A stretch of 57,146 nt of DNA, counting the filler, from Basidioascus undulatus (Eukaryota): assembly GCA_000826855.1 (NCBI GenBank). It is 4 parts of 4 records of this genome, joined end to end, with 100 filler letters (N's around TTAATTAATTAA, not from the genome) between each part and the next. Parts side by side here need not be neighbours in the genome. Positions count along the whole stretch, not along the records: positions 1 to 14,226 come from JTLS01000749.1; 3 more parts are not named here. One strand, written 5' to 3'. Shown in pieces: positions 3,843-42,946 of the stretch. A program made the position numbers and the translations under genes. Under the pieces are notes generated by a model. That model was not told the DNA's origin and did no database searches. It saw only the letters and a program-made list of their open reading frames with translations. Position 1 is the first letter of the stretch. Every line of letters begins with the position of its first letter.

Positions 3843-3850
3843 TATAAAAA
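3843..3850 (+). promoter_or_regulatory. TATA box of the peptide-precursor gene
   Basis: TATAAAAA about 110 nt upstream of ATG 3956. Confidence 0.55.
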
Positions 3851-3955: not shown

Positions 3956-4713
3956 ATGTTTGGATCGCGCGTCGCCCTCTGTACCATCGCTGGCCTGATG
4001 TTGTGTTAGTTCAACTTCGCTCGAGCTGTACAGATTGTGCTGAGCAGATGGCTGTTACACCCTTAGTGACTACTCTTTGGGTTGAGGCCTCTCCGATTGG
4101 AGGCTCTATCGACAACAAGCGTGCTGGTGAGCTGATTCTGGTTCTGAGATGCAATAATGCTCAAGTGTCTGACAGTACTGCCGCACAATGTAGAGCTTAC
4201 GCCGATTGCCGAGTGAGTGGGTTTGGATTTGTTCTATTCAGTCTTGTATTAAATTTGTTCTCCAAGGTACCTTGATCAGACGGTCAGCTCCACGGAGCAG
4301 GAACTCGGGGGCGCTCGACGCTCTAGGCCTCAAGGCTGACAAGAAGCGTGCAGAGTGTGTCCCCCTGAAATGCTACTCAGCCCTTTACGGTCCTAGCTCA
4401 CACTGCTAATATAATAGGCTCACTCCAATCGCCGAGTACCTTAACGACACAGTGGCCGACACTGAGGCCGAGCTCGGCGGTGTCTTTGACGCGTTGAGCC
4501 TCAAGGCAGACAAGCGTCGCAGTGCGAAGAAACGCCTCGGTACGTGCTAGCAGTCTTTCTTCTATCGAGAAAAACCACACACTAAAATTCACTTCCTGGA
4601 CAGAGCTCACGCCCCTCGTTGAGCACCTGGACATGGGGGTCGAAGACCTTGAGAAGCAGCTCGGGACCGCTCTCGAGGCGCTCGGTCTCAAGGCTGGGAA
4701 GCGCGCTCAGTGA
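3956..4713 (+). CDS. Secreted Kex2-processed repeat protein (precursor of three 33-aa peptides); one frameshift in this assembly
   Basis: Six exons with GT-AG ends (3956-4004, 4067-4126, 4194-4212, 4267-4354, 4418-4539, 4604-4713) give a signal peptide, SPIGGSIDN-KR and three homologous repeats bounded by KR/KKR. Repeat 1 is 2 nt short at the G-run 4307-4311. Confidence 0.8.
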
Positions 4714-5723: not shown

Positions 5724-8012
5724 ATGGCTTCCGACCGTTCGATCGCTTCGCATGACGAGAAGAAGGACGTCCATGATGTTGTTCAGGTTACGGGCCATCT
5801 GCTCCGTCTCAGACGACCAAGGAGCGGCTCTCTGCTGCGTTTACTATCGCGTGCGCGGGCTTCGCACTCATCTCGGATGGTTATCAGAACAACTTGATGG
5901 TGCGTTCATTGTCCTTGTTCCTCAGGCCTTCCACTGGTTTTGATCTATATTCTTCTTTCCCCTCCTCAGACCATGACAAACATGGGTGATGCTATTTCAT
6001 CGAAGGTCTCTCGCTCACGAGGGACCTTTCGCAGGTCGTGTAGGGCAAAATGTATGGGAGCGCACGACACCGCAACCAAGACCCGTGTTAGCAATGCGCT
6101 GCTCGTTGGTGCCATCATCTGGCAGCTCACAGTGTGAGGTTCCAACACCCTACCATCTCCCCAGCCTCTTTCTGACATGTCTTCTTTTAGAGGCTGGATC
6201 TGCGACCGCTTCGGTCGTAAAGTGGCTGTAGGTTGTGTATTCCTCCCGCCAGTGTTCCTGCCTTATAAAACTCCTGCACAGATTGCCGGCGCCATGCTTT
6301 TTACCGTCATTGGAGCCATCATTGGCACGGCTGCGCACGGGGCCAACAGGAGTCTGTCTGGTGAGCCCCCCAGTCTTCATCGACGGACACTGCGAGCACC
6401 CCAAACTGACTTGCCTTCATACAGGATTCTTTTCGGCGATGGCCTTTGCGAGAGGGAAACGGGGACTGTAGTGGGCGGAGAGTATGGTGCATCCTCTACT
6501 GCCGCTGCGGAGGCTGCGAATGAGCGTATGCACAAGCGTGGGTGGAGGCAATGCTTTCGCATCTACAGGACGCTGTGCTGACCTCCAGTTCATGTACAGA
6601 GCGCGGACCGGGTTACATCATGGTCACGAAGTGAGCATTTGTTTCCCAGTATTGCCCTTTGTTATATCAGTCTGACCTTTGAAAAACCAGCTTCACGCTC
6701 TGCTTCGGCGGCCCTCTGGTAGTCTCGATCTTCCTTATCGTGCTCAGCGCAGCCGACGAAGACCATCTCCCCACGGTGTGGCGGACATGGTCAGCCCAAT
6801 GCCATACTTCCTACCACCTACCACCTAGTTCTGACATTCGAAAACCAGCTTCGGCATGGGCATCGTCTTCCCGCTGTCGGTGCTATTCTTCCGCCTACGC
6901 ATGCTCAATAGCGTCCTGTACCATCGCGGTGCAATCAAAAGTGCCTAGAGAGACGCCTACGAGCCCTTCATTTCATTACTTTCCTCCTTTCTTCCTCTAT
7001 AGAACGCTCATGGAACTCTATCCTGTCAGAGCGTGTCCCCTATCGTCTGATCTTCAAGCGCCTTCTCCTGGTTGTGCGACCCACTTTTTCCGGAAAATAG
7101 GTTTAATAGTGAATTCTCACTGTTTAGCCTTTGCGACTTCGTTATGAGATATCCCATTATCAGATCCCCGAGCTCAAATAGCTGACCTTTGCGATTGCTC
7201 CATCCGCAGACGTTGCCTGTGCGTACTCCCACTTCTCTCTGCGCACTTCCCACACCTTTTTCGACAAACCCCAAACAGCCTAACGAGGTTTTTATCCCCA
7301 GAACGGCATATTCAGCGGCACGAACATCTCGAGTGTCGTCAAGCACTCCGACATCAAAAAGACTGCGGAGTGGCAGCTGCTGCTTGGCGCCCTTTCTCTC
7401 CCCGGCGTCTTCGTCGGCGCATGGCTCTGTAACAATATCGGACGGCGCTGGACCATGGTGGCCGGCTTCAGCGGCTATCTTTTTATCAGGCTCATCATCG
7501 GCTGCGCGTATGACAAGGTCACGAAGATCGTGCCGCTCTTGTACGTCCCCTTTTCCCCATATGCGCTCACCTGTATTACATGTACGAAACTAACGAGAAG
7601 GTTGCTTCGCATAGCGTTGTTCTTTATGGTAGGCACCCAACCATGTTTGCGGTTAGCTGTGTAATACAGAAGCTGACGCTTCCCTCTTGCACAGGCTTAA
7701 TGCAGTCCTCCGGCAACGCCGGTAAGTCTCCATGATCCACCCACTTTGAACATGGCGCTCACTTTTGAATCGAACCCTTTCTCCAGGACCCGGGAACATG
7801 ATCAGCCTCACCTCCAGCGAGTCCTTCGCCAGTACGTCTACCCCATCCATCCACTACCCACCCATCCTCCCACCTTTTCCCTCCCTCTCTTTCTCTCCCT
7901 TTCTGAACCACCCCCTCACTCGGCCCAGCGGCCGTCCGCGGCACTTGCTAGCTACGACATCTCCGCCACTGTGGGCAAAGCCGGCACTGGGATCGGGACG
8001 GAGGCTTCCTGA
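5724..8012 (+). pseudogene. GIT1-like MFS glycerophosphodiester permease, decayed and 3'-truncated
   Basis: Motifs across many exons: ISDGYQNNL, RVSNALLVGAI, GWICDRFGRK, VGGEY...AAAEAANE, TVWRT, KTAEWQLLLG, GRRWTM, VGKAG. Frameshift between AMAFARG and TGTVVGGEY (~6455-6462); early TGA at 8010-8012. Confidence 0.7.
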
Positions 8013-9471: not shown

Positions 9472-11963
9472 AGCGGGCAGGGGCATCAATGAAGACCGCA
9501 TGATGCAACTTGCAGTCATTGTACATGTCATGTCAGTGCGTTGACGCTGAAGACTGTATTCTTTCCATGTCTGAGTGTTTGGCTAACATCGTCCGCTTGT
9601 TGTCTCTCAGTCTTCCCCTCCTGATCACTGTGTCAATCTCAACTTGAGATCATCTAATTATTTATCAAGCCCCCACTCTAATCACTGCCTGCTTCTCCAC
9701 CTCTCTTGAACCCTCTTCAACCTTCGATTTTCCCACTCTGAATTGTCGTTCGGTTCATCCACATCGTCTTCAGTGTTCACTGTGTGTGCATTGAGCTCTG
9801 CAGTACAGCACTGAGCTCCCATACGGATCCTTCACTGCTACCATTCGTCTCACGATACTACCCCTACGGTCACAGTCCTCTCCCCTATCGTCTCACGATG
9901 CCACAGGTTCCGACCGTTTGCACCCAACCACACGAGCCTAGGCTCCCTTTGGGAGCAGGGAGTGGACCTAGTCGTCTCACGATGCAACCTACCTTAGGGA
10001 GCTTGTCACAGCTACAGCGAGCAGCCCCCCTCTGAGCTGCTCTGGTACTACAGTACCAACCCATGAATTGCAAGCTCTCGTATTGTTTTGCAGAAACTGT
10101 CTATACCAATTAGCATAACCTGGATGACTCAGGCTTGTACGTCACGTGCTGGTTCTTGTGTGACTCTGAGCTCAGTCTGTCTTGACTTTTCAGGTGGAAA
10201 GAAACTGTGCGAATGATACTGCACACATTGGATTTTTCCCTTCTGTTGCTGCACTTGCCCCGAGGCATGGACGATTGCCATTTGCAGTGCTAGAGTTCTG
10301 CTCAGAGTATGCGGAATTGTCCAAGAAAGGAAAACAAGTCCTAAGTTCTGGGAAGGGACCAAGGCACAAGACATCAGATACAAGACTGAAGGATATATAG
10401 CTTTTCATAACCAGGAAAGCTAACCAGTTCTGCAAGTTCGGGAAATATTCCCTGAAACGGCGTTATACAGCAACAGCTTTTGCTAGACTTGCGAGGCTCA
10501 CCACTGACATGCGAAAGCAGCTTCCCTTCAACCAACAAGCTGGACCTCCGCATTGCCTCGATTAATTTGAAGAGCTTCTCAAAACTTAGGAAGAGTACTG
10601 CAATGACGCTGCTCAAACTCTAATGAGGTGTTGAGCCTGATCGAATCGTCGATCCACCGCAGTCATTTGAAGGCTGCTGGCATGCCCACGCTGGTTTGCT
10701 CGCATTGCATTTCAAACTGCCTTTCTACCGGCTCCATGTGTTTCCGGCCCCCCGCCTTTAGCTCTTTTTCCGAGGTCTATTCGTATTGCTATATTTTCAG
10801 TAAGTGTACCTACCGCCCCTGGTCTCCGACGCCGACCAACCCTTCCTGCCCGCTCAATCCACCATCTCCCTCCCACCGGCTGCACCCCCCTCGCTCGCAC
10901 CATGCCGGTCCTTGCACAAACGAGGGAGTCTCACGCTTTCAAAGAGGACGAGAAGCATCATCCTCCTACCCGCTGGAGGGGTGTGGTGGGACGACTTGCG
11001 TCTCTGGGGGCGCGGAAGGGGCGGGCACGTGAAGGGAGACTCGACGTCGCTCGATGCTGGACCGGAGCTAGGCGAAGAGCAGGGGGCTGAGGCGGTGGAT
11101 TTGGAGGTACCCCCAGAACAAGATGTGGATTGGCCGAAGTATCTATACGGGCTTTCGGAAAGCAGCTGCTGAACGGGGGGGTTCTGGGCAGAGCCTCTAC
11201 AGCGTGCACCACGCTTTCAATGACGACGAAGCTTCGATCCACACGGCCCGACGAATCAGTCTATCTCCAAACAGCCGTTCATCCAGACCCTCTCCACCAA
11301 CCTCCATCCACTGCCCGCTCCCCCATCAGCGCTCGCTTTCTTTGTCCTATAAGAGTCAGTCCGCCATCGGACGTCGGGCGTACTTGCTGCAGCTGAGACG
11401 ACAGCTGGAAGTTCATCTTGCTCAGCCTGCGATCAGTACCTGGCGGGCACCCGCGCGACACTGAACCCCCCGTGTTCGCGCTAAAACTTGCGCGGCTTCT
11501 GTATGTGTCCTACCGAATGGTAGCCTCCTTAGTGCACACACCCGACGCATCCGCACACCTCCTCCCAGTCGCACTCAGCAAAAACAGCACAAAGCACACA
11601 TTAACACGCTCGCAGCGTAGCATTTTGGGGGTGTGTAGGCAACGCGTAGGCAGGCAACATCGGCGGGCGGGGCGTAAGACGGGGGCGGGGCGTAATCGAG
11701 TGCGGTGGACGGGACGAACGTGAACAGGGGGACAGGAAAACGGGAGGGCAGGAGAGCGGATAACACAACAACAGACGGGCGGGAACGGACGGATGCGAAG
11801 AGTGGAGGAGGGGTATGTGGGGCGGTATCTGATCTGAGCGCGCGAAGACATGCGTGGAATGTAACGAGGGGAAATCGAATGGGAAAAAGGGGGAAAGCGA
11901 AAGGTCCGGCTGGGCCTGACGAGAGAAGAGAGAGAAGAGGTGTGGGGCAGGGGATGGGAGAGA

Positions 11964-12335
11964 TCATCGATGTCCCTGCGCTTGAGCCTGCGCGTGCGCC
12001 TGAGCCTGCGCCTGCTGCTGGAACAAGAACGTCTGTCGCGCCACCCACCCGCATCCTTGTCAGCGCCGTGCCCTCCAAACAACCCCTCATGCGCGAATGC
12101 AAACGCACCTGCAGTCTCTGCCGCTGCGCCGGGTCCTGCATGAGCGCCTGGAGCTGGTCCATGCTGAGCCCGCCGGCCTGCTGTGGCGGCTGCTGGGGCT
12201 GCTGCTGGGGCATGCCAGCATACGGGGGCGGTGGCGGACGGCCAGGCATCATCCCCACGCCGACGCCCATGCCGACGCCCATGCCCATGCCCATTCCCAT
12301 GTTCCCCATGCCAATGCCTGGCGGGAGGCCGTACG

Positions 12336-12375
<40 letters not shown>

Positions 12376-13024
12376 GGCGAACTGCTGCTGTTGGCCAAAC
12401 TGCGGCTGGAGCTGGACGGGCTGCTGGGGCGGTGGTGGGGGTGGTGGTTGATGCCCCGCGAACTGCATCGGCATCTGCGGCATCTGCATGTGCGGGTGCG
12501 TGGGCATGGGCGGCTGGTGTGCGAGTGGGTGGGGCGCGAGGTGCTGCTGCGGTGGTGGTTGGGGGTGGAGTTGTTGGGGCTGAGGTTGGGGCTGCGGGGC
12601 GGTGAGGGTGGGGAGCGGTTGGTTGATGTACACTATCGCGACGAGACGCGGGGACGGCGCGGCGCCGGAGGCGGCGGCGCCCGCGTTGGACGCGACGAAC
12701 ATGACCATGCCGTGTTCGCCGCTGGGTCCAAACTTGACCAGTGCGACCTAGATCCTCCGCCTTACCTCAGTTCCACACCCTACCAGACACCGAACGTGGA
12801 AGTGGAAGAGGGGGAATGGGGAGGACGCACCGTCTTCTTCCCATCCAAATTCCGCGCCAAGCTATCATACAGCGCCTGGTTCTGCGCGCCGGCGCCCTGG
12901 ACGGCGACGAACGCGACGGCGGGCGCGCCCGCGGCCTGGCTGTGCTCGCGGAGCTGGGCCATGTTGTTCGGCATGACGGACGTGATCTGGAGCTTGGCCG
13001 GCCAGAGGGAGGCGATGCGATCGC
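11964..13024 (-). CDS. MED25 ACID/PTOV-like domain plus Gln/Pro/Met-rich tail; 5' part missing
   Basis: Exons 13024-12831, 12747-12109, 12032-11964 read DRIASLWPAKLQITSVM...LYDSLARNLDGKKT-VALVKF...GMVMFV...RLVAIVYINQPLP, then poly-Q. Confidence 0.55.
12338..12374 (-). repeat. CAG trinucleotide repeat (poly-Gln)
   Basis: (CTG)n on the plus strand, inside the Q-rich exon. Confidence 0.85.
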
Positions 13025-14226: not shown

Positions 14227-14326
14227 NNNNNNNNNNNNNNNNNNNNNNNNNNNNNNNNNNNNNNNNNNNNTTAATTAATTAANNNNNNNNNNNNNNNNNN
14301 NNNNNNNNNNNNNNNNNNNNNNNNNN
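14227..14326. other. Artificial contig spacer
   Basis: N44-TTAATTAATTAA-N44, with stops in all six frames. Confidence 0.97.
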
Positions 14327-17300
14327 TGGGGGAGGGACGGAGGCGGTGGCATCGAGGGGGGAGGAGAGGAGGACGAGCTGCAGGGCCCAAAGAAGTCAGC
14401 CTTCTGCAAGACACGGCCGCGTGAAAGTGGGAAGTGGCTTACGGAAAGACGGAGCAGAGTAGGGGTTCGCATTCGACCGGCCGCCGCCTGAGTAAAGGCT
14501 CGCCGGCGGCGGCATGTACGGGTTGCTGCCGCCGCGCGGCGGGCCGAAGAGGCCGGGCACGTAGTCGTCGAGCTTGATGAGTTGGTTGTTGCTGAGGGGT
14601 TCGAACACATTTGTCAGCGAGGGAGCCGCGAATGCAGTTGCGTGGGGAGGCAGAAAAAACGCACTGTCGGCGCATACACATGTCCCTGTCGACGGTGATG
14701 ATCCTGTTGGCGGCATGGAGCTCTACGCGGACCTGCCCGCCATTCGTGCCCTTGATGATGCCGATCATGCCCTTGTGCGTGCCGCGGATGATCTGGACGG
14801 GCGCGTTCTCGAGCCGGTCGCGCTCGCCGCCGCGGCCCATCATCGACGAGCCGACCATGCCGCCGCGCTCGGCGTTCGGGTTCAGCGGCGCGAGCGCGGG
14901 GTTCATCCGGCTCAGGTCCGGCCCCGCCGCGCTGGCGCCGTTGCCGAGCGCCTTGGGCGCGACGGACGCGAGCGAGCGCGCGCGCGTGACGAACACGCCG
15001 CCGTTCTCGGAGATCTCGCGGTTGTGGAGGAAGGCGAACTGCGAGCGGTAGATGTGCAGGACTTGGCCTTTCCGACCCTGAGGCAGCGCAGCAAACGCGG
15101 TCAGTCATAACGCAGGGAGACGGTTGCCGGACAGCGATGGAACGCACCTCGCCCTCGATCTCCTTCACCATGTCCCCAATGCGCATCTCGTGGCCCGTAG
15201 AGTCCGTAGCGACGGCACGGCGCGAGTCCCGGCGCATGCTGATCTGCCGCGGCCCGACGACGCGAACAGAGCCATTCTGGTCGAGCACGCGGAAGGTGTT
15301 GTGCTCGGTCTTGAAGATAACACCCGCCGTCTGCTGGCTGTGATTTGGCAGTACACTGTCAGCTGAGCAAGGCAGTGAAGGAGAATTGAACCCACTCGAG
15401 TTGGACAAGGTCGTGCAGCTCGTAGTCGCCCACAGTGTTCGTGCTCGCGCCAATCTCAGCCGCCTCGCGGACGTCCTTCGCAAACACGGTAACCTGCGAA
15501 GCGCCACGCAATAAGTGAGCACGCGTCTCCCGGGACTCGAGCTGCCGAACGAACACACCTCGGTTTGAGACAAGTCGGACATGAGCGTGACGGTATTGCC
15601 GTCGGTCGCGACGACCAGACCCGTCTCGTCGACGTTCTTGCCGGCCATGACCTTGACGTGGGCGCCCGGCTTGAAGCGCTTCCGGATGCTCCGTGCCTGG
15701 ACCTCGACGAGCTGCTCGTCGAGGTCGGTCGCTTCGAGGCGGGCGCGGATGGTGACGACGTCGCCGCGGATGGTCTCGACGGTGCCGTCGATGCCTGCCT
15801 GCTCGCCCTCGAAGACCTCGACGTGGTCGCCGGGCTGGAGAACGGCGGTGGAGGCCTTGCGGGACGCCTCGGCGATGACGCTGAGGTCGAACTCGGTCGC
15901 GTTCGGCATGCCCGTCCCGTCGCGGTCGCCGCCCGTGAAGCGGGTGATCTCGTCGAGGGTCGGGTTGACGTCCTCGGTCTGCAGCCCTGAGATCTTGATG
16001 TCCTTCTCAATGAAGCCGTCCTTGAACGTGTCGCCCTGGAAGACGTAGCTGTTGCCGCGCTTGACGCTGCTCCGCGCGCCGTACACCTTGATCACGTCCG
16101 CGTGCGAGTACAGCCGCTGCGGCGGGCGGAACGCGATCGCCTGGCTCGACCCGCCGGCGGCGCCTGCGCCCTTCTTCCGCTTCTTGCCGTCCGAGCCCGT
16201 GAACGTGTTGTCGTCCTTCGGGTTGAGGTCGATGCGCGGGACGAACTTGACTCCAGCGATGTCGCCGTTCTCTGTGACGTCCATGACCTGCGCGAGGTCG
16301 CCCGCGTACTTCCCGCGCTTGATGCGTACCCACGTGCCGGGGACGAGCTCGACCGTCTGCTTCTTGATCTTGAGCAGGTCCGCCATCTCGTCGATCGGCA
16401 CGAGGACAAAGCCGCGCGAGGGGTACACGCCGACGAGGCCGTTGATCGCGTTCGTGACGTGCGCCTGCGAGCGCGCCTCGATGTAGATCATGCCCGAGAG
16501 CGAGTCGCGGCAGAAGGCGGAGATGAAGTCGAGCGGCTTGGAGGTGTACTCGACGTCGAGGAACTTGCGCATCAGCGAGAAGACGAGGTCGCGCTCGCGG
16601 CCAGGCTACACCATCCCATCAGTCCACCAGCGTCAGCACCATGTCCACAGGTCCTGCAAGATCCGCCTTCTTGATCGGATCGCCAGCCCATTGCCCCACT
16701 CCCGCCCTCCACAGCCCCAGCCCAAGAAGTCAAGTCACTGACCTTGCACCGCACGCCCCAAATGTTGGCGTCGTTCACACTGGGCATGAGCAGCCGCTGA
16801 GGGATCTGGTCGACGTCGCCCTGGTAGCGCATGCCCATGCGGCCGTAGCGCTCCTTGAGCTCCTCGGCGACCTTCTCCGCGTCGCGGTCCTCCATCTCGC
16901 GGTGGCGGCGGTCGAGGCGCGTGTGCTCGTTCCGCCCCGCGCGCCCGATCGGCTCGTCCATCTCGGGACGGTCCTCAATGAAGCCCTCCGCTGTGGGAGA
17001 GAAAGCGTGCGGGTCAGTGGCAGTGGGCGGGATGGGATGGGGAGGGTGAAAGACGCACCGTCTCGCCCGAGCTCCTCCTCGTCCTCCTCCATCTCCTCAT
17101 CCTCATCGTCGACCTAGGAGGGTTGACAGAGGGATGAGCGAACAGCCTAAGCGGTGATAGTAAGATGGCACAGCGTACCTCGGCTTCGACATCGAGGAAG
17201 CGGTTCCGCTTGTTCTTGCGACGGCGCTTCCGTCCCGCCCGTCCATCGTCTTCGTCTTCGTCTTCCTCGTCCTCCTCATCGTCCTCCTCATCCTCATCTT

Positions 17301-17899: not shown

Positions 17900-19104
17900 A
17901 TGGCGAGTAGCTCTTTCGCTGGCTTCGGCGACCAGACACCCGCCGCTGCTGTACACAGCCCCGCCGTGCTGCCCGCTCGCTCGCTCGCGCTAGCGGCGCA
18001 CATTTCGAGCGGGTGCTGGGACGGCGGCGGCGGGTGGTCGTGCGTCTTCTTCGGGGGTGAATGTGCTGACCCTCCCCCCCTTCTCCCATTTTCGCCCTGT
18101 TCGTGATCTGTAGGCTCCTACCGACAAGAAGGTGCGTTGGCGGCATGCTGTTGCGGTTATACCGCGAGTCCGGGGCGAATGCTGATCTTCGCTTTGCTCC
18201 CGCGCCCTCCAGACCAAGACGCCCAAGACGCGCTCGGCTATCTCCGATGTCGTGACCCGCGAGTACACCATCAACCTCCACAAGAGGGTCCACGGCCGGT
18301 GCGTCCCTTTCCAGCGAGTGTAGCGCTGGCGAAGGCAATCGTGCTTACCCCTGCCCGCCGCAACAGCTCCTTCAAGAAGCGCTCGCCCTGGGCTGTCAAG
18401 TCCATCGTCGAGTTTGCCGAGAAGGCGATGGGGACCAGGGACGTCCGTCTCGACCCCAAGCTCAACCAGCAGGTGTGGTCGCGCGGCATCCGCAACCCGC
18501 CCCGCCGCATCCGCATCCGTCTCGAGCGTGCGTCCCCCGTTTCTTCTCCCCCCCTTTCCCTCTCCCCCCTCCTCTCTTTCCGGCTGCGTTGCGGGGCTGG
18601 GGCTAGGCTAGGCTAGGCGGGAGGGAGTGCGACAGGACGGTCACAGTGTAGCAGTGGTGCGCGACGGAGAACCCCAACCCTCTGGAGGACACGCACCCTC
18701 TTCGCGGGCCTTGGTGCCTTCTCTCTCTCTTCCACTATCCCTACAGAGCGACTCGCGTCGTGCCTCCCCCACGCCTGAAACGCAGTCGGCTCTGCCGTTC
18801 GTGAGAACGTGCGCGGCTGACGTGGTCACCCCATGGATGATGCTGCTTTCAGGGAAGCGCAACGACGCCGAGGACGCCAAGGTCTGTCTCTTCTTCCTTT
18901 TCCCCTGCTGTCTTCTCTACCGACCGTTTGCTAACGTTCGCCGCTTTCCTCGCCTACAGGAGAAGCTCTACACCTACGCTTCCTACGTCCCCGTTGTCGA
19001 CTTCAAGGGTCTCGAGACCACCGTCGTCGACGTGCGTATTCCCTCCTGCTCTTCGTCGTCCCGACGCTGTGAGCTGACTTGGTGGGACAATGCAGGTCGA
19101 GTAA
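17900..19104 (+). CDS. RPL31: 60S ribosomal protein eL31
   Basis: Spliced product [47 protein letters not shown]...[34 protein letters not shown]...[11 protein letters not shown]. Confidence 0.97.
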
Positions 19105-21596: not shown

Positions 21597-24500
21597 ATGC
21601 CGCTTTTCTCAACGGACGATATCCCCGACGCTGCTGCTGAGTCGCGCGCGGAAATGCACGAAGGCGGCAGTGGGGTGACCACGCCTGGCACGGAGTCGGA
21701 CACGACGCCGGAGGGGTTCGAGTCGATCCACTCCCCCCCCATCCCCATGCCCCGCGGCCGCTCGCGCGACGCGTATGAAGATCCCGAGGGCCCGTTCTTC
21801 TCCCACAAAGAGCACAGGACTATGCATGAGGTCCGTCGCCGCCCATCCTCACCCGCGCCGTCTTCCTGGGGCTGAGTGATCGAAACGCCGGTTGGGTGTT
21901 GCCGGGGGGATGATGATGTACAGGCGGATGGAAAGTACCTCTCGCACCACCACTCCGAGCTGGGGAGCTCGTACGTCTCCTCCGCGTCGATGCATTCCGC
22001 GCCGAGCGAGCACGCGTCCAGCCCCGTCGAGTCATCGGCGATGCGGGCGGGCCGCCGCCCGTCCATTGCGCCCTTCACGCCTGCGAGCCCGAAGCCCGCG
22101 GGGGCGTCGCAGGAGCGGGAGCGAGAGCAGGGCGGGGAGGAGGATAAGTTCGCGAAGGAGTTTGAGGGACTGAAGGTCAATGGGCAGCTCCCTGCAGGCG
22201 CGGTGGAGTACACGGGCGATGAGGAGGCGGCGCAGGGTCATGGGACGGCTATACCGCCTCTCAGTAAGTGCACGCTGTGCATCGAGCTAGGCTTCGGGAC
22301 TGACGAGGAGGTCCATGCCTCCAGGCGAGGAGATCACCGCTGAGCTGCGAGCGCTGTACAAGTCGTTCCAGAATTGCCTGGACCTGCGCGACAAGTGCGT
22401 GCTCTGGATGCTCTCCCTTCAAACACGCGCTCACTGACCCCCGTCCACCTCCCGCAGGTACATGAGCGTCTCTGCCCAGCGGATGGAGGACGACCCGCGG
22501 AACTACGACGGGTCCTTCCACCCGGCGCGCGAGCCCGGCTCCGACGCCCCCTTGCACAAGCCGTGGCGCGTGTACCCTCCCCCGCCCAAGCCGTTCTGGT
22601 ACCGCCAGGGCGAGCTGGGCGGCACGGAGCTCCCGCAGGAGCCGCCGCGCGAGGGCAAGACCGAATTCAAATGGGAGGACGCGGGCGAGATGCCCGGCGC
22701 GCACCAGTGGGACTTCGAGATGGACGATAAGGGCGTGTATCAGGTTTACTCTGGCGGGAAAGGTGCGTGCGATGGTTGGGGTGGGGTGGGAGAGGGTTGG
22801 TTGGCTGACGGGGTGGAGGATGCGTAGAGGAAAAGAAGCAGCTCTTCAATATCCCGTCGATTCGCGACTACTTCATGGACCTCGATTATATTCTTTCCGT
22901 CATCTCGGATGGACCGGCGAAGAGCTTCGCATTTCGCCGCCTCAAGTACCTACAGAGCAAGTGGGAGATGTACACGCTTCTCAACGAGTACCAGGAGCTC
23001 GCAGACATGAAGGTGGGTAGCTGCGCGCTGATGGCTGACGTACCGTTTTGTAGTGCTGACACGAAGCGGATTTGATTTACAGCGCGTTCCTCACCGGTAT
23101 GTCTGATTGCAACCCTTAACCGAAGAAATGCGCAAGAGCTCATGCCGCGACGTACAGTGACTTCTACAACGTACGCAAGGTGGACACGCACATTCACCAC
23201 TCTGCCTGCTTCAATCAGGTCCGTCTCCCATCGCCTTCTTCCTTCACGTCCTGCGACATTGCTGACAGCGATCGCTACAGAAACACTTGCTGCGCTTCAT
23301 CAAGTACAAGCTCCGCAAGCACCCCGACGTGCGGACTGCACCAAAGGATGCTGAAACGCCTCCGCTGACGATGACTTGCGGGTGCAGGACGTCGTGATCC
23401 ACCGTGACGGCAAGGACCTGACACTCAAGGAAGTGTTCGAGTCGCTCAACCTCACGGCGTACGACCTCTCTATCGACACGCTCGACATGCACGCGCACCA
23501 AGACTCGTTCCACCGCTTCGACAAGTTCAAGTGCGTCTTCCATTTTCTATTTACGCAGTCGTGTTTGACGTGCGTCTCCTCCGAGCAGCTTGAAGTACAA
23601 CCCTAGTGCGTCTGGAGTAGTCGCTCGCAGTCAGTCTCCACCTTTGCTTATGTTCGTCCGCAGTCGGCGAGTCTCGCTTGCGCGAGGTCTTCCTCAAGAC
23701 CGACAACTTCATCGAAGGGCGGTATCTTGCGGAGATCACGAAGGGTGCGCTCGCTTTGTTCCAGCAACAGTGTGCGCGTGTCTCACCTAGCTTCCCTGGG
23801 TTGCAGAGGTCATGAGCGATATCGAGGACAGCAAATACCAGGCGAGCGAGTGGCGCATCAGCATCTATGGCCGGTGCGGAACTCTTCTTACTCCTATCGA
23901 AATTTACGCTAACGTGGCTTCGTGCAGCTCGACCTCTGAGTGGGACAAGCTCGCCAAGTGGGTCATCAACAACAAACTCTTCTCGGACAACATCCGCTGG
24001 CTCGTCCAGATCCCGCGCCTCTACCACGTCTACAAGGGCGCCGGCCTGGTCGAGAACTTCGAGGACATCGTCCGCAGTATGTCTTCTCGCCGCATCCAGA
24101 GCTCTACGGCAGACTCTGATCGTGAAGAGCCGTGGAGACATCTTCCTCCCCCTGTTCGAGGTGACCAAGGACCCGAGCTCCCACCCCGAGCTGCACGTCT
24201 TCCTCCAGCGCGTCATCGGCTTCGACAGCGTCGACGATGAGTCCAAGGCGGAGAGGCGGCTGTACCGCAAGTTCCCCTAGTGAGTCTCGAGTGGTGCCGG
24301 TGTTGCGCAACTGCCGCTGATCGATGGTCCCGGCAGCCCTCGCGTGTGGGACACGAAGCAGAACCCGCCCTACAGCTACTGGTCCGTGGTTCTTTTCACT
24401 TTCTTGTTCGGCCACTCTGATCCGGCGCCTGTAGGATCTACTACATGTACGCCAACATGGCGTCCCTCAACTCGTGGCGGCGCGAGCGTGGCTTCAGTAC

Positions 24501-25641
24501 GTCGTGACTCTTGGTGTCGTCGTGCTCGTCGCTCACCGCTCTCATACCTTCCTCAGACACCTTCGTTCTCCGTCCGCACGCCGGCGAAGCCGGCGACACG
24601 GACCACCTGACCTCGGCGTTCCTCACCTCGCACTCCATCTCGCACGGCATCCTTCTCCGCAAGGTGCCCGCGCTCCACTACCTCTACTACCTCAAGCAGA
24701 TCGGCATCTCGATGTCGCCGCTCAGCAACAACGCCCTCTTCCTCACCTACGAGCGCAACCCCTTCCCCGACTTCTTCCGCACGGGCTTGAACGTCTCCTT
24801 GTCGACGGACGACCCGCTCATGCTTGCGTTCACTAAGGTGAGTCGCTTGAGAGCGTCTGGTGGGGAGATGTGTTCTTACATGCGGTGTGGGCGTTCAGGA
24901 ACCGCTGCTCGAGGAGTACAGCGTTGCTGCTCAGGTATGTGCCACATTCAAGAGTAGAACGCCCGACCGAGGCTTTGGCTAAACTTTCATATGCTACGTT
25001 ATAGATCTACAAGCTCTCGCCGGCGGACATGTGCGAGCTTGCACGGAACTCCGTCTTGCAGAGCGGGTTCGAGATGGAGATCAAGCGGCACTGGTCGTCA
25101 GTTCTTTCTTCCTTTCCGGGACATGCCACTGACCGGAATTCGTGCAGGCTCGGGCAGAGGTTCTATCTTCCCGGTCCCGCTGGCAACGACATTCACAAGG
25201 TACGACTGCTTTCACATGGGGTCGTTATGTTAAGTTACTCACCTCGCATTGTTTCCTCAGACGAACGTCCCCAACATCCGCCTCGCCTTCCGCTGGGAAA
25301 CGCTGCAGCAGGAGCTCGCCCTCATCGGCGCTGCCGCGCCCCAACCTCTCATCACCGCCACCCCTCGTCTGAAGCCGTCCCAGAACATGGCGCCTCCTCC
25401 GCTCAGCTCGGCAAACGTCGCGCACCGCCCCCCGAATGCCTTCGGCTCAGGCCAGCACTCGAACCAGGAGCTCGGGGCCGCTGCTGCAGCTGGTGCGGGT
25501 GGCGTTGGATTTGGGATGCCGGACGTGACTCCTGGCGCGCATCAACCGCCGCTGGGTCTCGTCAGCAGGAGGCGCAGCCCGAGCGTTCTTGCTTCGGGGC
25601 CGGTCACGCCTATGGTCGACGGGGACACGCAGGGCAAGTAA
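21597..25641 (+). CDS. AMD1: AMP deaminase
   Basis: [100 protein letters not shown]; more than 20 exons. Confidence 0.97.
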
Positions 25642-28542
25642 GGGTTTGGACTTATAGATGCATGCTCTGCTCGCGAGACTCTTCGCACTACGTTTGCCTG
25701 TCTTTTGCTCGTCTGTGCGACGTACCGCGCAAGTGGCAAGTGAGCAGTTGCGGCACATGCTCGTCCGACTCTTGTATTCACATGGGTAAGACCCTTGGAG
25801 CGCCTTGCCACTACGGCCATGTGAACGGCGGAAAGCAGATGGAGCAAACGAAGTCTGGTCGCAACGAGCATTCCGGTGTGATTTTTTTGGGGGAGGGCAT
25901 GATTTTCTTTGGCATGAAATTCGCTAAAGTGTCCCGCACTCCAGGCGATGGAATGATCTGGATTTCAAGAATAATGGAGAAGTACTGCATTCCGCATGAC
26001 GAGCTTTGCGCGGAGATGATATTTATCAAGAGACCGTGAGTATTGATCGATGAATACCGTTCAGACAAAGAATGCTGAACTGATCTCCCATTATTGTCAG
26101 ATGGTATGGCAAGATCATGTTTCTCTATGTGCGCATCTCTTCAATTGTTACATAAAAGCACCTTTTGCGAGCTGATCGTCATTGTGCTTCTTGCAGGAGG
26201 GAGAATTAGGTGAGCAAGGGACTGAACATGACTAGCTCCCCTTATCATGAAGATTAGCCGTTTGGAAATTACTGTGATCGAGCAGTCCGCCAAGTTTCTA
26301 TCGAACTACGCGGAGGCTCGCTTGAAGCGCATTTGCGTTTCAAGACAGCGGTGAAGGAACGGGTCGCGGAGCTTATGGCGAGTTACCTGTAGAGCCGCAC
26401 ATCATCCGTTGACGACTTGAAGATGTAATGCATTGGAAACTAAGCTACTGTGGACCTCTGTTGTTGAATTCGTGGCCTGGGAGCACGCAGTCTTGCAGAA
26501 AAGTTATGCATTGCTGGCCCATTGCGCCCGCGCGCTCCCAATGCTCGTTTTTGTTCGGCAATCTCACCACGGCAACGAAATGTGGCGACCAATAGTATTT
26601 GGCCCACTAGTGAGCTAGACTTTCACGTGCTGAGCAGATGTGAGGGCCAGTCCAACATGCTGCGGCTCCTGCATCGTCTCCCTCTGAGCCGGACGCACCG
26701 CAAGACGCTGGATGGCGAGCTGTCCGTCAGAGATCGGCAGGGTCTTGAATCTGTGCCAGAACCCCGTCAGAACAAAAGTGATCAAATGGATTGTTCATTT
26801 CCTTGCAGATAAACGCCACTCACAAGTCATTGCTCAAATTTGTCGAGCACAGTCACGCCCTTTCATTCTCCACTCTCCCCGGGGGCTTTGCATAATACCT
26901 TTCAAGTCCAAGGAAATACGGAATGAAACCTTCCAAGGTCTTTACTGACGGTTCGCACCATAGTGCAAGAGCCAAGGCGGGGTGCGACAACAGGTGCACG
27001 TATGCGGTCGCGCTGTGTGCTGCAGCGGCAGGGGATTTCGGAGGTGGTGTTTGGGCATTTGGGAGGAGTTCTCCTGGACGCCCGTCGTAATAAGGGTTTA
27101 AATTACAGTGGTCTGGAGCTCGAATGGTCAACGGGGGCAATACTGGGATGGTCGGGGTTGGATTCGAGCTGGGGCGGGTTCTTGGGCATGGCAGGTGGGG
27201 TCCGAATGGCTAGAGCTTAGCTAACAGGATGTGTCTGGTAATTTTTGCGTCGTGTAGGTAGCAGTGGACTGCGTGTCGGTGAATGCGGCGGTTGTTGTCT
27301 GATATGGTGAGCAGCCTAGAAGGGTGCATTCCGACAATATGAGCCTTGAAACAACAACTAAGGCCTGTGATATGGGCACCCCAAAAGGGCTTACCGAATT
27401 GTTTACACACTTCGCATTTGCTGTCCACCTGTCCCGTGCAGTCCTGCTTCTCCGCTGCGGCAAGCAGCCCAGTTCCCCTGCGTACTCCGGTGTACTCCTC
27501 CCCGTGCTGAAAGATACGGGAACCCCGCACCCCCGACGCTGGATCTCCTCGGAAAGAAATTCCTCGTCACAGGTTGCTCTCAAGAAAGCGCACGTCTGGG
27601 AGAGCGTGACGGCGTCAGAGAGGGAGAGGGCGTTGCGGAAGCGGAAGAGGAGCTCGCAGTGAAGTCAATCGATAAGATTTGATGCCATCGTGGTATGCAT
27701 TAATAATAAATTCGAAGAGATGGCATGGAGAGGTGTAGGTGAAGGAAGGAACGGAAGAGCGAAGGGACGGGAGCGGCAGCGGGAACAATTGCAACAACTC
27801 GGTAACGGATCAGCCTGACGCCGTACTCCCTGGCTAGCGTCACCCCGGAAACTAATGCTCGAGTGATTTGAGAAGGAAGAGTAACGGTTTTGCCCGTGAG
27901 GAAGACGCGACCAACGCTTTCGAAGGGAAGCCGACAGGCATTCACTTTGCAGTGCAGTGCCGGCCGCCTTCGTCCGCCCAGAAGCAGTGAAGTTGGAAGA
28001 CGTGAAGCAGTATTAAGAGTTTCTTTTTCTAAGAAGGCTGCTCTGTATCTCAATGAGTAAAGCTGGATAGCATAATTAAGCTTGGGAAGATCTGGTTGAC
28101 TGTGAAGGCGTGGGCCTGCCTGTCGGCTCACGGAGCCGCTTTCGCTCCTTACGACCTATGAACCTAGGGTCTTCGAACCAAACAACTCTGCCTATAAACT
28201 CTGCATATACTGTTTGATAATGGGTGCCCAGAGTTTTGCTGAGGTGGACTGCAGGTAGGGACCGCGCTGAGATACGTCCGTCCGCAGTCAGGACTAACCC
28301 TTCGGAGGGCCAAGGCCGGACCTGATTGTTTCCTAGTCAAACAAGAAGGCCTCGGTGACCGGTCACCTGCAGTGTCCACCGGACAATGGAAACAGACTGC
28401 AAGCGTTGCAAGCCGTTGCAAGCGAAGCCCAAACGGCCTCTATCTCGCTCAGCTCACGCGGCTGTTCAGTGCGCCTCCCACAGCATGACCTCCCTTCGTG
28501 CTCCTTTGCTTGTTCCTCATCCTCTCTGGCCTTTTGGCTTAG

Positions 28543-28642
28543 NNNNNNNNNNNNNNNNNNNNNNNNNNNNNNNNNNNNNNNNNNNNTTAATTAATTAANN
28601 NNNNNNNNNNNNNNNNNNNNNNNNNNNNNNNNNNNNNNNNNN
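28543..28642. other. Artificial contig spacer
   Basis: N44-TTAATTAATTAA-N44. Confidence 0.97.
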
Positions 28643-42846: not shown

Positions 42847-42946
42847 NNNNNNNNNNNNNNNNNNNNNNNNNNNNNNNNNNNNNNNNNNNNTTAATTAATT
42901 AANNNNNNNNNNNNNNNNNNNNNNNNNNNNNNNNNNNNNNNNNNNN
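42847..42946. other. Artificial contig spacer
   Basis: N44-TTAATTAATTAA-N44. Confidence 0.97.

Follow-up and report, generated by a model that had tools for sequence, protein, structure and literature searches.

A small six-exon gene with three 33-residue units

The window analysed in this work is a stretch of 57,146 nucleotides of DNA from Basidioascus undulatus (assembly GCA_000826855.1). At positions 3956-4713, on the plus strand, it carries a small, unannotated gene, which we read as coding for a putative precursor of three short, acidic peptides. The main point, which goes beyond the earlier note that had drawn attention to this locus, is that the repeated unit is shared with bacteria: it shows 56-76% identity with the mature portion of a very small secreted protein found in one actinobacterial family (Pseudonocardiaceae; Pseudonocardia and Actinomycetospora by record titles). 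Overall, the observation made in that note is confirmed and its interpretation is partly supported (the gene model, the secreted-precursor layout and the view of the 33-aa unit as the functional product stand), the locus being either a real or a very recently broken gene of the Kex2-processed protein (KEP) type.

The six-exon model first proposed for this locus holds. All five introns, of 62, 67, 54, 63 and 64 nt, are of the GT..AG type (donors GTTAGT, GTGAGC, GTGAGT, GTGTGT and GTACGT; acceptors TAG, TAG, AAG, TAG and CAG), the conserved junctions AE-LTP and AE-YLD reappear on splicing, and a profile built from bacterial peptides only tiles the exon pieces, as detailed below. The GC content of the exons is 0.603 versus 0.442 for the introns, with a value of 0.579 for the window overall; AT-richer introns are as expected of a fungal gene.

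All the parts of the gene lie on the plus strand. A TATA box, already pointed out in the earlier note, reads TATAAAA at 3843..3849, 113 nt 5' of the ATG, and is a consensus match only. Exon 1 (3956..4004) holds the start codon and the first 16 signal-peptide codons, with an n-h-c layout judged by eye. Following intron 1 (4005..4066; phase 1), exon 2 (4067..4126) encodes the end of the signal peptide (..WVEA), the pro-piece SPIGGSIDN, a KR site, and Ala1 plus the first base of the Glu2 codon of unit 1. Specifically, the signal-peptide-like start consists of the n-region MFGSR, a hydrophobic core some 17 residues long, and VEA in positions -3 to -1. Intron 2 (4127..4193), which has a CTGAC branch-like site, splits the Glu2 codon of unit 1 and is followed by the 19-nt exon 3 (4194..4212), coding for residues 2-8 of this unit (ELTPIAE) and matching positions 1-8 of the bacterial-only profile. 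Intron 3 (4213..4266; phase 2) splits the Glu8 codon of unit 1, and the 88-nt exon 4 (4267..4354) carries the remaining part of unit 1, a KKR site, and Ala1 plus two bases of the Glu2 codon of unit 2. Intron 4 (4355..4417), with a CTAAT branch-like site, splits this Glu2 codon. Exon 5 (4418..4539) encodes residues 3-33 of unit 2, the linker KR-RSA-KKR, and Leu1 plus the first base of the Glu2 codon of unit 3, which is in turn split by intron 5 (4540..4603). Finally, exon 6 (4604..4713) encodes unit 3, the most diverged of the three, followed by KR, AQ and the stop codon.

As previously described, the three units are 33 aa long, acidic and Cys-free; their net charge ranges from -3 to -6, with 31-32 residues scored per unit. 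Dibasic sites are present at each boundary (NKR, KKR, KR-RSA-KKR and KR-AQ-stop), in agreement with the KR/KKR bounding reported before, and none is found inside any unit. The Glu2 codon of every unit is interrupted by an intron (introns 2, 4 and 5; phases 1, 2 and 1 in the repaired frame), as the earlier note had also observed and from which it had suggested a duplication of exon units. Such a duplication is plausible, but the introns retain no residual similarity to one another (z -2.5 to 2.2), a result that neither supports nor excludes the duplication of an exon together with its intron. A second copy of the unit was not found elsewhere in the window, and no Rfam family was matched there.

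A two-base frame break in unit 1

Exon 4 contains a frame break at 4313..4316 (plus strand): since the relatives have G-A-L-D where the window reads GGCGCT|CGAC, two bases are missing with respect to all homologues. The frames holding the two halves of unit 1 share two bases, 4314-4315. An intact reading at 4313-4316 would be GCTCTCGAC, and would imply an assembly error; the present reading is GCTCGAC. The 149-aa precursor proposed earlier is thus obtained once 2 bases are inserted at about 4313-4316, the units then accounting for 99 of the 149 residues (66% of the length). Read literally, the joined coding sequence is 448 nt long and out of frame, and its translation stops at codon 67 (TGA at 4337-4339), giving 66 aa.

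These data are compatible with a dead copy, that is, a genuine 2-base deletion in a pseudogene recently inactivated in this strain, whose product would be either truncated, at 66 aa or less, or a two-unit protein made through skipping of exon 4. Because introns 3 and 4 share the same phase, an mRNA lacking exon 4 would stay in frame, with 360 nt coding for 119 aa, and would keep units 2 and 3. In addition, the comparison of unit 2 with unit 3 gave proportions of synonymous and nonsynonymous differences (pS and pN) of 0.62 and 0.35, looser than among the units of the related gene L001 described below, indicating that unit 3 is drifting faster. Against a dead copy, no other lesions were seen, ten of the ten splice sites are intact, and units 2 and 3 are open. 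Moreover, the segment of unit 1 past the break (LDALGLKADKKR) resembles the corresponding part of unit 2 (FDALSLKADKRR) in protein, with several synonymous differences, and has therefore evolved in the repaired frame as coding DNA. The loss of CT from a CTCT run is also a typical assembly or read error. We conclude that the frame break is recent or artefactual, a mistake of the assembly or else a lesion of very recent date, and that a dead copy is possible, though on the unlikely side.

A profile of bacterial peptides singles out the locus

To evaluate the locus independently of its own repeats, a profile built from 51 bacterial peptides only was run over 1990 six-frame pieces of the window. 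The profile matched unit 2 with an E-value of 9.1e-14, unit 3 with 6.2e-9 and the middle part of unit 1 with 2.6e-5, followed by exon 3 (0.018) and the out-of-frame tail of unit 1 (0.22); the next match elsewhere in the window had an E-value of 2. The three pieces of unit 1 tile the profile positions 1-8, 9-24 and 23-32, and therefore independently confirm intron 3 as well as the place where the frame breaks. As the only match of the bacterial profile in the window, with a clear contrast in GC content between exons and introns and with synonymous-biased units in L001, the locus goes beyond chance, and a chance open reading frame was rejected. Bacterial contamination was rejected as well, in view of the spliceosomal introns and of the surrounding eukaryotic genes (Spt5, RPL31e and AMP deaminase).

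A phmmer search with the exon-5 peptide against 1.84 billion representative proteins returned seven matches. Three were short relatives, 67-69% identical to the query: P0006 (E 2.5e-5), P0008 (4.9e-4) and P0009 (9e-4), the last two with units closely resembling those of the Actinomycetospora loci. The other four were long repeat proteins sharing only a local ..VFDAL.LKAD motif. Among these, P0004, P0005 and P0007 have repeats ending in ..APSQNAVFDALALKAD, have this motif in common with unit 2, and owe their E-values (3.8e-6 to 3e-5) to the sum of 5-6 repeats; their likeness to unit 2 may be a chance helical resemblance or a very distant kinship. P0004 carries PF12789 ('Phage tail repeat like'), a family that we discarded for the present gene, given that neither the units nor L001 matched it at E-values up to 1. 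When the 40-aa exon-5 peptide was used to look for protein homologues of longer or near length, none came up.

The suggestion that the family is undescribed stands up to these searches. No family of Pfam or NCBIfam, the alpha-factor families included, was matched at cut-off by units 2 and 3, by the bacterial proteins or by L001, with the exception of a borderline NCBIfam match of L001 to TIGR02697 (28.6 bits versus a cut-off of 27.55), in which no single stretch passed and which was treated as a repeat artefact. A profile search of PDB sequences gave no match (best E 0.25), and the ESM Atlas returned unnamed clusters, all but one scoring below 0.9 (best 0.90), and no lead. The full-text literature search gave no occurrence of the unit motifs and nothing on the family. 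Likewise, the core motif had 0 occurrences in the supplementary tables available from two KEP surveys (four files of PMC6339444 and three of PMC7329392), and the motif families named in the available text of PMC6339444 differ from that of the window.

In Pseudonocardiaceae the unit is the whole mature protein

Pattern scans identified seven loci in named genomes (Pseudonocardia endophytica, P. parietis, two in Actinomycetospora atypica, A. soli, A. aurantiaca and A. sp.) and five metagenome loci. In 11 high-GC loci (0.70-0.77) the unit forms the C-terminal part of a small open frame, with a layout consisting of a signal peptide ending in AxA, a stretch of 30-34 residues starting with [AV]E[LIV]TP.., and a stop. 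Together with 40 loci fetched from genome matches, these make up the 51 bacterial loci examined, all of which (51/51) encode a signal peptide, one unit and a stop. The AxA motif directly precedes the unit in 49 of the 51 loci and lies two residues upstream in the other two. The bacterial genes have no introns and no basic flanks, and a GC content of 74%. As an example, the P. endophytica gene (L006, 2860-3099) codes for 79 aa; the window units are 56-69% identical to it in the alignment, and up to 76% identical to L020 in the tree set. The earlier note had regarded the 33-aa unit as the functional product, and this view gains strength from bacteria, which make exactly one such unit, beginning with the same residue that follows KR here.

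Two bacterial subtypes can be distinguished, one acidic (..TVADTEAE.G..LD.LGLEAAE) and one hydrophobic-tailed (..TIAATSASLVEALAVLLGVS). The latter, represented by L004, L005, L037-L041, L049-L051 and L053, keeps the N-terminal AELTPIAEYLD and ends in ..LVEALAVLLGVS, a tail not seen in the eukaryotic genes; lepA is adjacent in the two loci of this subtype examined.

The bacterial gene is confined to a narrow taxonomic range among the genomes sampled. Specifically, 60 of 401 genomes matched at E <=1e-4 in the family-level sample of G001, the genome holding L006. In the order-level sample 10 of 401 matched, all 10 being also in the family list, and at the phylum level the single match in 401 was the query genome itself; unit matches outside the family were thus not found among the sampled order- and phylum-level genomes. 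Six of the 60 positive genomes (G002, G107, G194, G219, G340 and G360) have two unlinked copies, and these differ in sequence in all four genomes for which the second copy was retrieved or listed (G002, G194, G219 and G340).

With regard to genomic context, purD and a class I/II aminotransferase gene flank the bacterial gene in all four Pseudonocardia-type loci (L002, L003, L006 and L012); in L007 and L009 it lies upstream of a PhoD-like phosphatase gene, and in L004 and L005 it has lepA next to it. These are core-genome settings without modification or export genes.

Other eukaryotic copies lack dibasic sites and keep an arginine at every junction

Two further eukaryotic genes and a fragment came from the searches. 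L001 lies on a marine-metagenome scaffold with a GC content of 0.50. A TATA box and an ATG are present, and its signal-peptide exon (MKTSTIQLFAFASVLSVAFA, then APVP) is separated by a 59-nt GT..AG intron, carrying a CTGAC branch-like site, from a single exon with five tandem units. Its junctions read ..GLEAR|AE.. in three cases and ..GLEAR-NP-VELTP.. in one. P0010, a 114-aa protein from a Logan assembly and the only one found with the 169-aa repeat region of L001 as query, has a similar signal peptide, an apparent read-through intron and two units joined by ..GLEAR-QP-AEITP.., and P0006 represents part of a protein resembling L001. L001 and the window are syntenic in the gene itself and no further. 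The intron preceding the first unit is one codon apart in the two genes and in the same phase, a near match that hints weakly at shared eukaryotic ancestry. The four frames flanking L001 gave no Pfam match, and a P450 identity considered for its neighbour was not borne out.

The earlier note had named homologues lacking the dibasic sites as something that would refute its reading, and this applies in part: two eukaryotic relatives, L001 and P0010, are of this kind (..EAR|AE..), yet Arg still occupies the P1 position in all five of their inter-unit junctions. Furthermore, the extra residues found ahead of units are X-Pro dipeptides, namely AP-VP following the signal peptide of L001, and NP and QP, each at one junction; XA or XP after the cut is given as a STE13 signature in the available text of a KEP survey (PMC6339444). 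We read the Arg before every junction and the X-Pro spacers as a sign that processing into units probably holds for the entire eukaryotic branch.

An alternative reading is that the linked units act as one secreted, all-helical, acidic repeat protein in which the KR sites are incidental. The absence of dibasic sites from the five-unit L001 and the two-unit P0010 speaks in its favour, as does an AlphaFold2 model of the five-unit protein, computed without an alignment, which is helical throughout. However, this model has a mean predicted local distance difference test score (pLDDT) of 45.6, shows no compact fold and is informative for helix propensity only. Moreover, bacteria make the unit alone, the window gene has dibasic sites at all four unit boundaries and none within the units, and the P1 Arg and X-Pro spacers of L001 and P0010 resemble processing signals. 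An unprocessed repeat protein is therefore unlikely.

The unit is constrained, predicted helical and strongly anionic

The ten pairwise comparisons among the L001 units gave pS values of 0.33-0.80 and pN values of 0.05-0.19, with omega of about 0.03-0.14 where computable. With pS far above pN, these units are under purifying selection and their duplications are old.

In an alignment of 18 units, P5 is invariant and T4, A7, Y9, L10, D11, A15 and L28 are conserved at 90% or more. The C-terminal half is variable, and switches between acidic and hydrophobic among bacteria. AlphaFold2, provided with the 18-row alignment, predicted a single continuous helix spanning residues 4-33 (mean pLDDT 91); a helix-GG-helix hairpin was rejected on this basis. 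The net charge ranges from -3 to -9 across units, the one exception being a hydrophobic-tailed bacterial unit with -1. Helical hydrophobic moments are modest, at 0.19-0.32, with z-scores versus shuffled sequences of 1.5-2.7 in 11 of 12 units and 0.84 in the twelfth.

These results modify the proposal that hydrophobic residues are conserved with helical periodicity: a moderate amphipathicity stands, but conservation concerns specific sites (T4, P5, A7, Y9, L10 and D11) and not periodicity alone. A surface-active or membrane-active role, as also put forward earlier, is not favoured for units so strongly anionic and only moderately amphipathic. With specific residues conserved across both domains of life and a variable C-terminal half, the pattern would be better explained by sequence-specific recognition via the N-terminal TP.AEYLD motif than by a detergent-like or pore-forming role.

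Eukaryotic units are nested within bacterial diversity

A maximum-likelihood tree was computed from 61 units (52 distinct) over 33 columns, with a midpoint root. The hydrophobic-tailed bacterial subtype split off with a support of 95/85, and all the eukaryotic units fell inside the acidic bacterial subclade (93/87), the units of L001 and P0010 forming a clade of their own (95/90). In view of the broad and syntenic bacterial range, of only three eukaryotic loci, and of the nesting of the eukaryotic units in bacterial diversity, a transfer from bacterium to fungus is the more economical reading, and we hold it to be fairly likely.

The family could also have arisen in fungi and then moved to Pseudonocardiaceae, or the likeness could be due to convergence. 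The tree root is not fixed and the alignment has only 33 columns, and the fungal range may be underestimated. Nevertheless, that only three eukaryotic loci came out of a library of 1.84 billion representatives, one of 5.8 billion clusters and one metagenome scan argues against a fungal origin, as do a bacterial gene with a GC content of 74% in 60 of 401 family genomes, at syntenic core positions, and a second bacterial subtype falling outside the clade that holds the fungal units. Convergence is contradicted by mature N-termini that match and by 31-33 residues that are 56-76% identical. Taken together, we regard an opposite transfer, or none, as improbable.

A putative Kex2-type precursor of anionic helical peptides

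All together, our data favour, by a modest measure, a Kex2-type precursor of anionic helical peptides, whose family was probably obtained through horizontal transfer from Actinobacteria. According to this model, the precursor would enter the endoplasmic reticulum, where its signal peptide would be removed; a Kex2-type convertase in the Golgi would cut after every dibasic site, and a Kex1-type carboxypeptidase would trim the trailing K/R. Three anionic, single-helix peptides of about 33 aa would be secreted, with the N-terminus AELTP.. as in the bacterial peptides. Indeed, the residue following KR in the fungal gene is the mature start of the bacterial peptides ([AV]E[LIV]TP), and the fungal cleavage sites would reproduce the bacterial signal-peptidase boundary. 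The secreted peptide would recognise some extracellular partner in a sequence-specific manner, and not as a general detergent-like amphiphile. In fungi, the acquired gene would have gained introns, duplicated in tandem and, in this lineage, obtained dibasic sites. A further step, namely that fungi secrete the captured actinobacterial peptide to mimic, jam or exploit its bacterial role, for example as a Pseudonocardiaceae peptide cue or partner-binding factor, would amount to inter-kingdom mimicry and has, in our opinion, a slender probability.

Several points weigh against this model. The gene as read is frameshifted and would give only 66 aa, and both the signal peptide and the cleavage sites were called by eye. 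As L001 and P0010 have no KR, RR or KK between their units, release by Kex2 is not conserved across the eukaryotic branch; Kex2 may accept other P2 residues when P4 is aliphatic, and its cleavage after a single Arg is a possibility. L001 and P0010 are probably fungal, judging from gene structure (TATA box, 59-nt GT..AG intron with CTGAC, 50% GC), and the eukaryotic loci found are three only. The window units are unplaced by support in the tree, where their nearest neighbours are L020 and L006, and 33 columns with a midpoint root do not tell one transfer from two, a single origin of the eukaryotic units being compatible with the starred branches. Finally, the genes neighbouring the bacterial copies are housekeeping genes, giving no functional clue.

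Comparison with known peptide precursors

According to the available text of two surveys (PMC6339444 and PMC7329392), KEPs share a signal peptide and at least three similar peptides, separated by KR/KKR and filling most of a small protein. With its signal-peptide-like start, and with the break bridged, the window gene has this architecture. The definition in PMC6339444, as far as the available text gives it, asks for KR/RR cuts yielding at least four fragments and at least three similar repeats, which the locus shows at the level of its DNA and units and not in its literal translation; for repeats covering at least 15% of the protein, which here take up 3 x 33 of 149 residues if the break is bridged; and for an N-terminal signal peptide with no membrane span, to which the signal-peptide-like start described above, as judged by eye, would correspond. 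L001 and P0010 fall outside its KR/RR/KK rule. Differently from KEPs, the window gene has a helical core of 33 aa with bacterial homologues, and is readable only by bridging the frameshift.

The Pseudonocardiaceae peptides have in common with the window gene the 33-aa unit, the same N-terminus past the cleavage site and a predicted single helix. The pro-piece, the three units, the basic linkers and the introns of the window gene depart from their single-unit architecture, and the relationship is one of homology of the unit only.

The resemblance to Rep1 of Ustilago maydis is in precursor logic only: the Rep1 repellents form amphipathic amyloid fibrils on aerial hyphae, whereas the window unit is predicted helical, is very acidic and gives no amyloid sign, and is set apart by this description. 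In the maturation of alpha-factor and of Ece1/candidalysin, Kex2 cuts after KR, Kex1 trims, and Ste13 removes X-Ala/X-Pro; here too the likeness is in precursor logic only, L001 and P0010 having X-Pro spacers. In contrast to the present units, at a net charge of -3 to -9, candidalysin is hydrophobic and has a cationic end. By analogy, dermcidin-derived peptides are proteolytically released, anionic and helical, and act outside the cell; they come from different organisms and precursors, and no sequence relation was detectable in the PDB profile search. Ustiloxin cores, for their part, are of tetrapeptide scale.

The weakest alternative, an ustiloxin-type ribosomally synthesised and post-translationally modified peptide precursor with cores cyclised by DUF3328/UstY enzymes, shares the layout of signal peptide and KR-bounded repeats given in the available text of PMC7329392, but is highly improbable, as the 33-aa helical cores are far longer than those of ustiloxins and DUF3328 was found in 0 of 135 open frames of at least 85 aa in window positions 1-24000. 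This count agrees with the earlier statement that no DUF3328/UstY gene lies nearby and makes a linear product likelier than a cyclised one, as for linear KEP products.

Since new KEP types are common (838 types, along with 2560 stand-alone KEPs, are reported in the available text of PMC7329392), a new core peptide alone would be ordinary. The unusual feature is a core that is not restricted to fungi and corresponds to the whole mature product of a conserved, undescribed actinobacterial secreted mini-protein. If both the transfer and the processing were true, the gene would be a worked example of how introns, tandem amplification and dibasic/X-Pro signals fit a bacterial peptide gene for secretion by eukaryotes; no comparable case was found in the literature searched. 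In addition, the locus draws attention to an unstudied, probably secreted peptide of 30-34 aa, present in 60 of the 401 genomes sampled from an actinobacterial family rich in antibiotics, and it provides a testable connection between fungi and these bacteria.

Other features of the window

The eukaryotic genes recognised in the window are ordinary and intron-split, and give no hint of peptide processing or modification: Spt5 (14442-17096, minus strand), ribosomal protein L31e (18107-18613, plus), AMP deaminase (22809-26039, plus) and a sugar-transporter-like gene (6138-7664, plus). A long open frame at 11575-12747 (minus strand) is rich in Gln, Pro and Met-Gly runs, includes a poly-Q tract of about 14 residues and has no Pfam match. 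Lastly, three 100-letter stretches (14227-14326, 28543-28642 and 42847-42946), about 14.3 kb apart, each consist of 44 N, 12 bases and 44 N, and resemble masking rather than assembly gaps.

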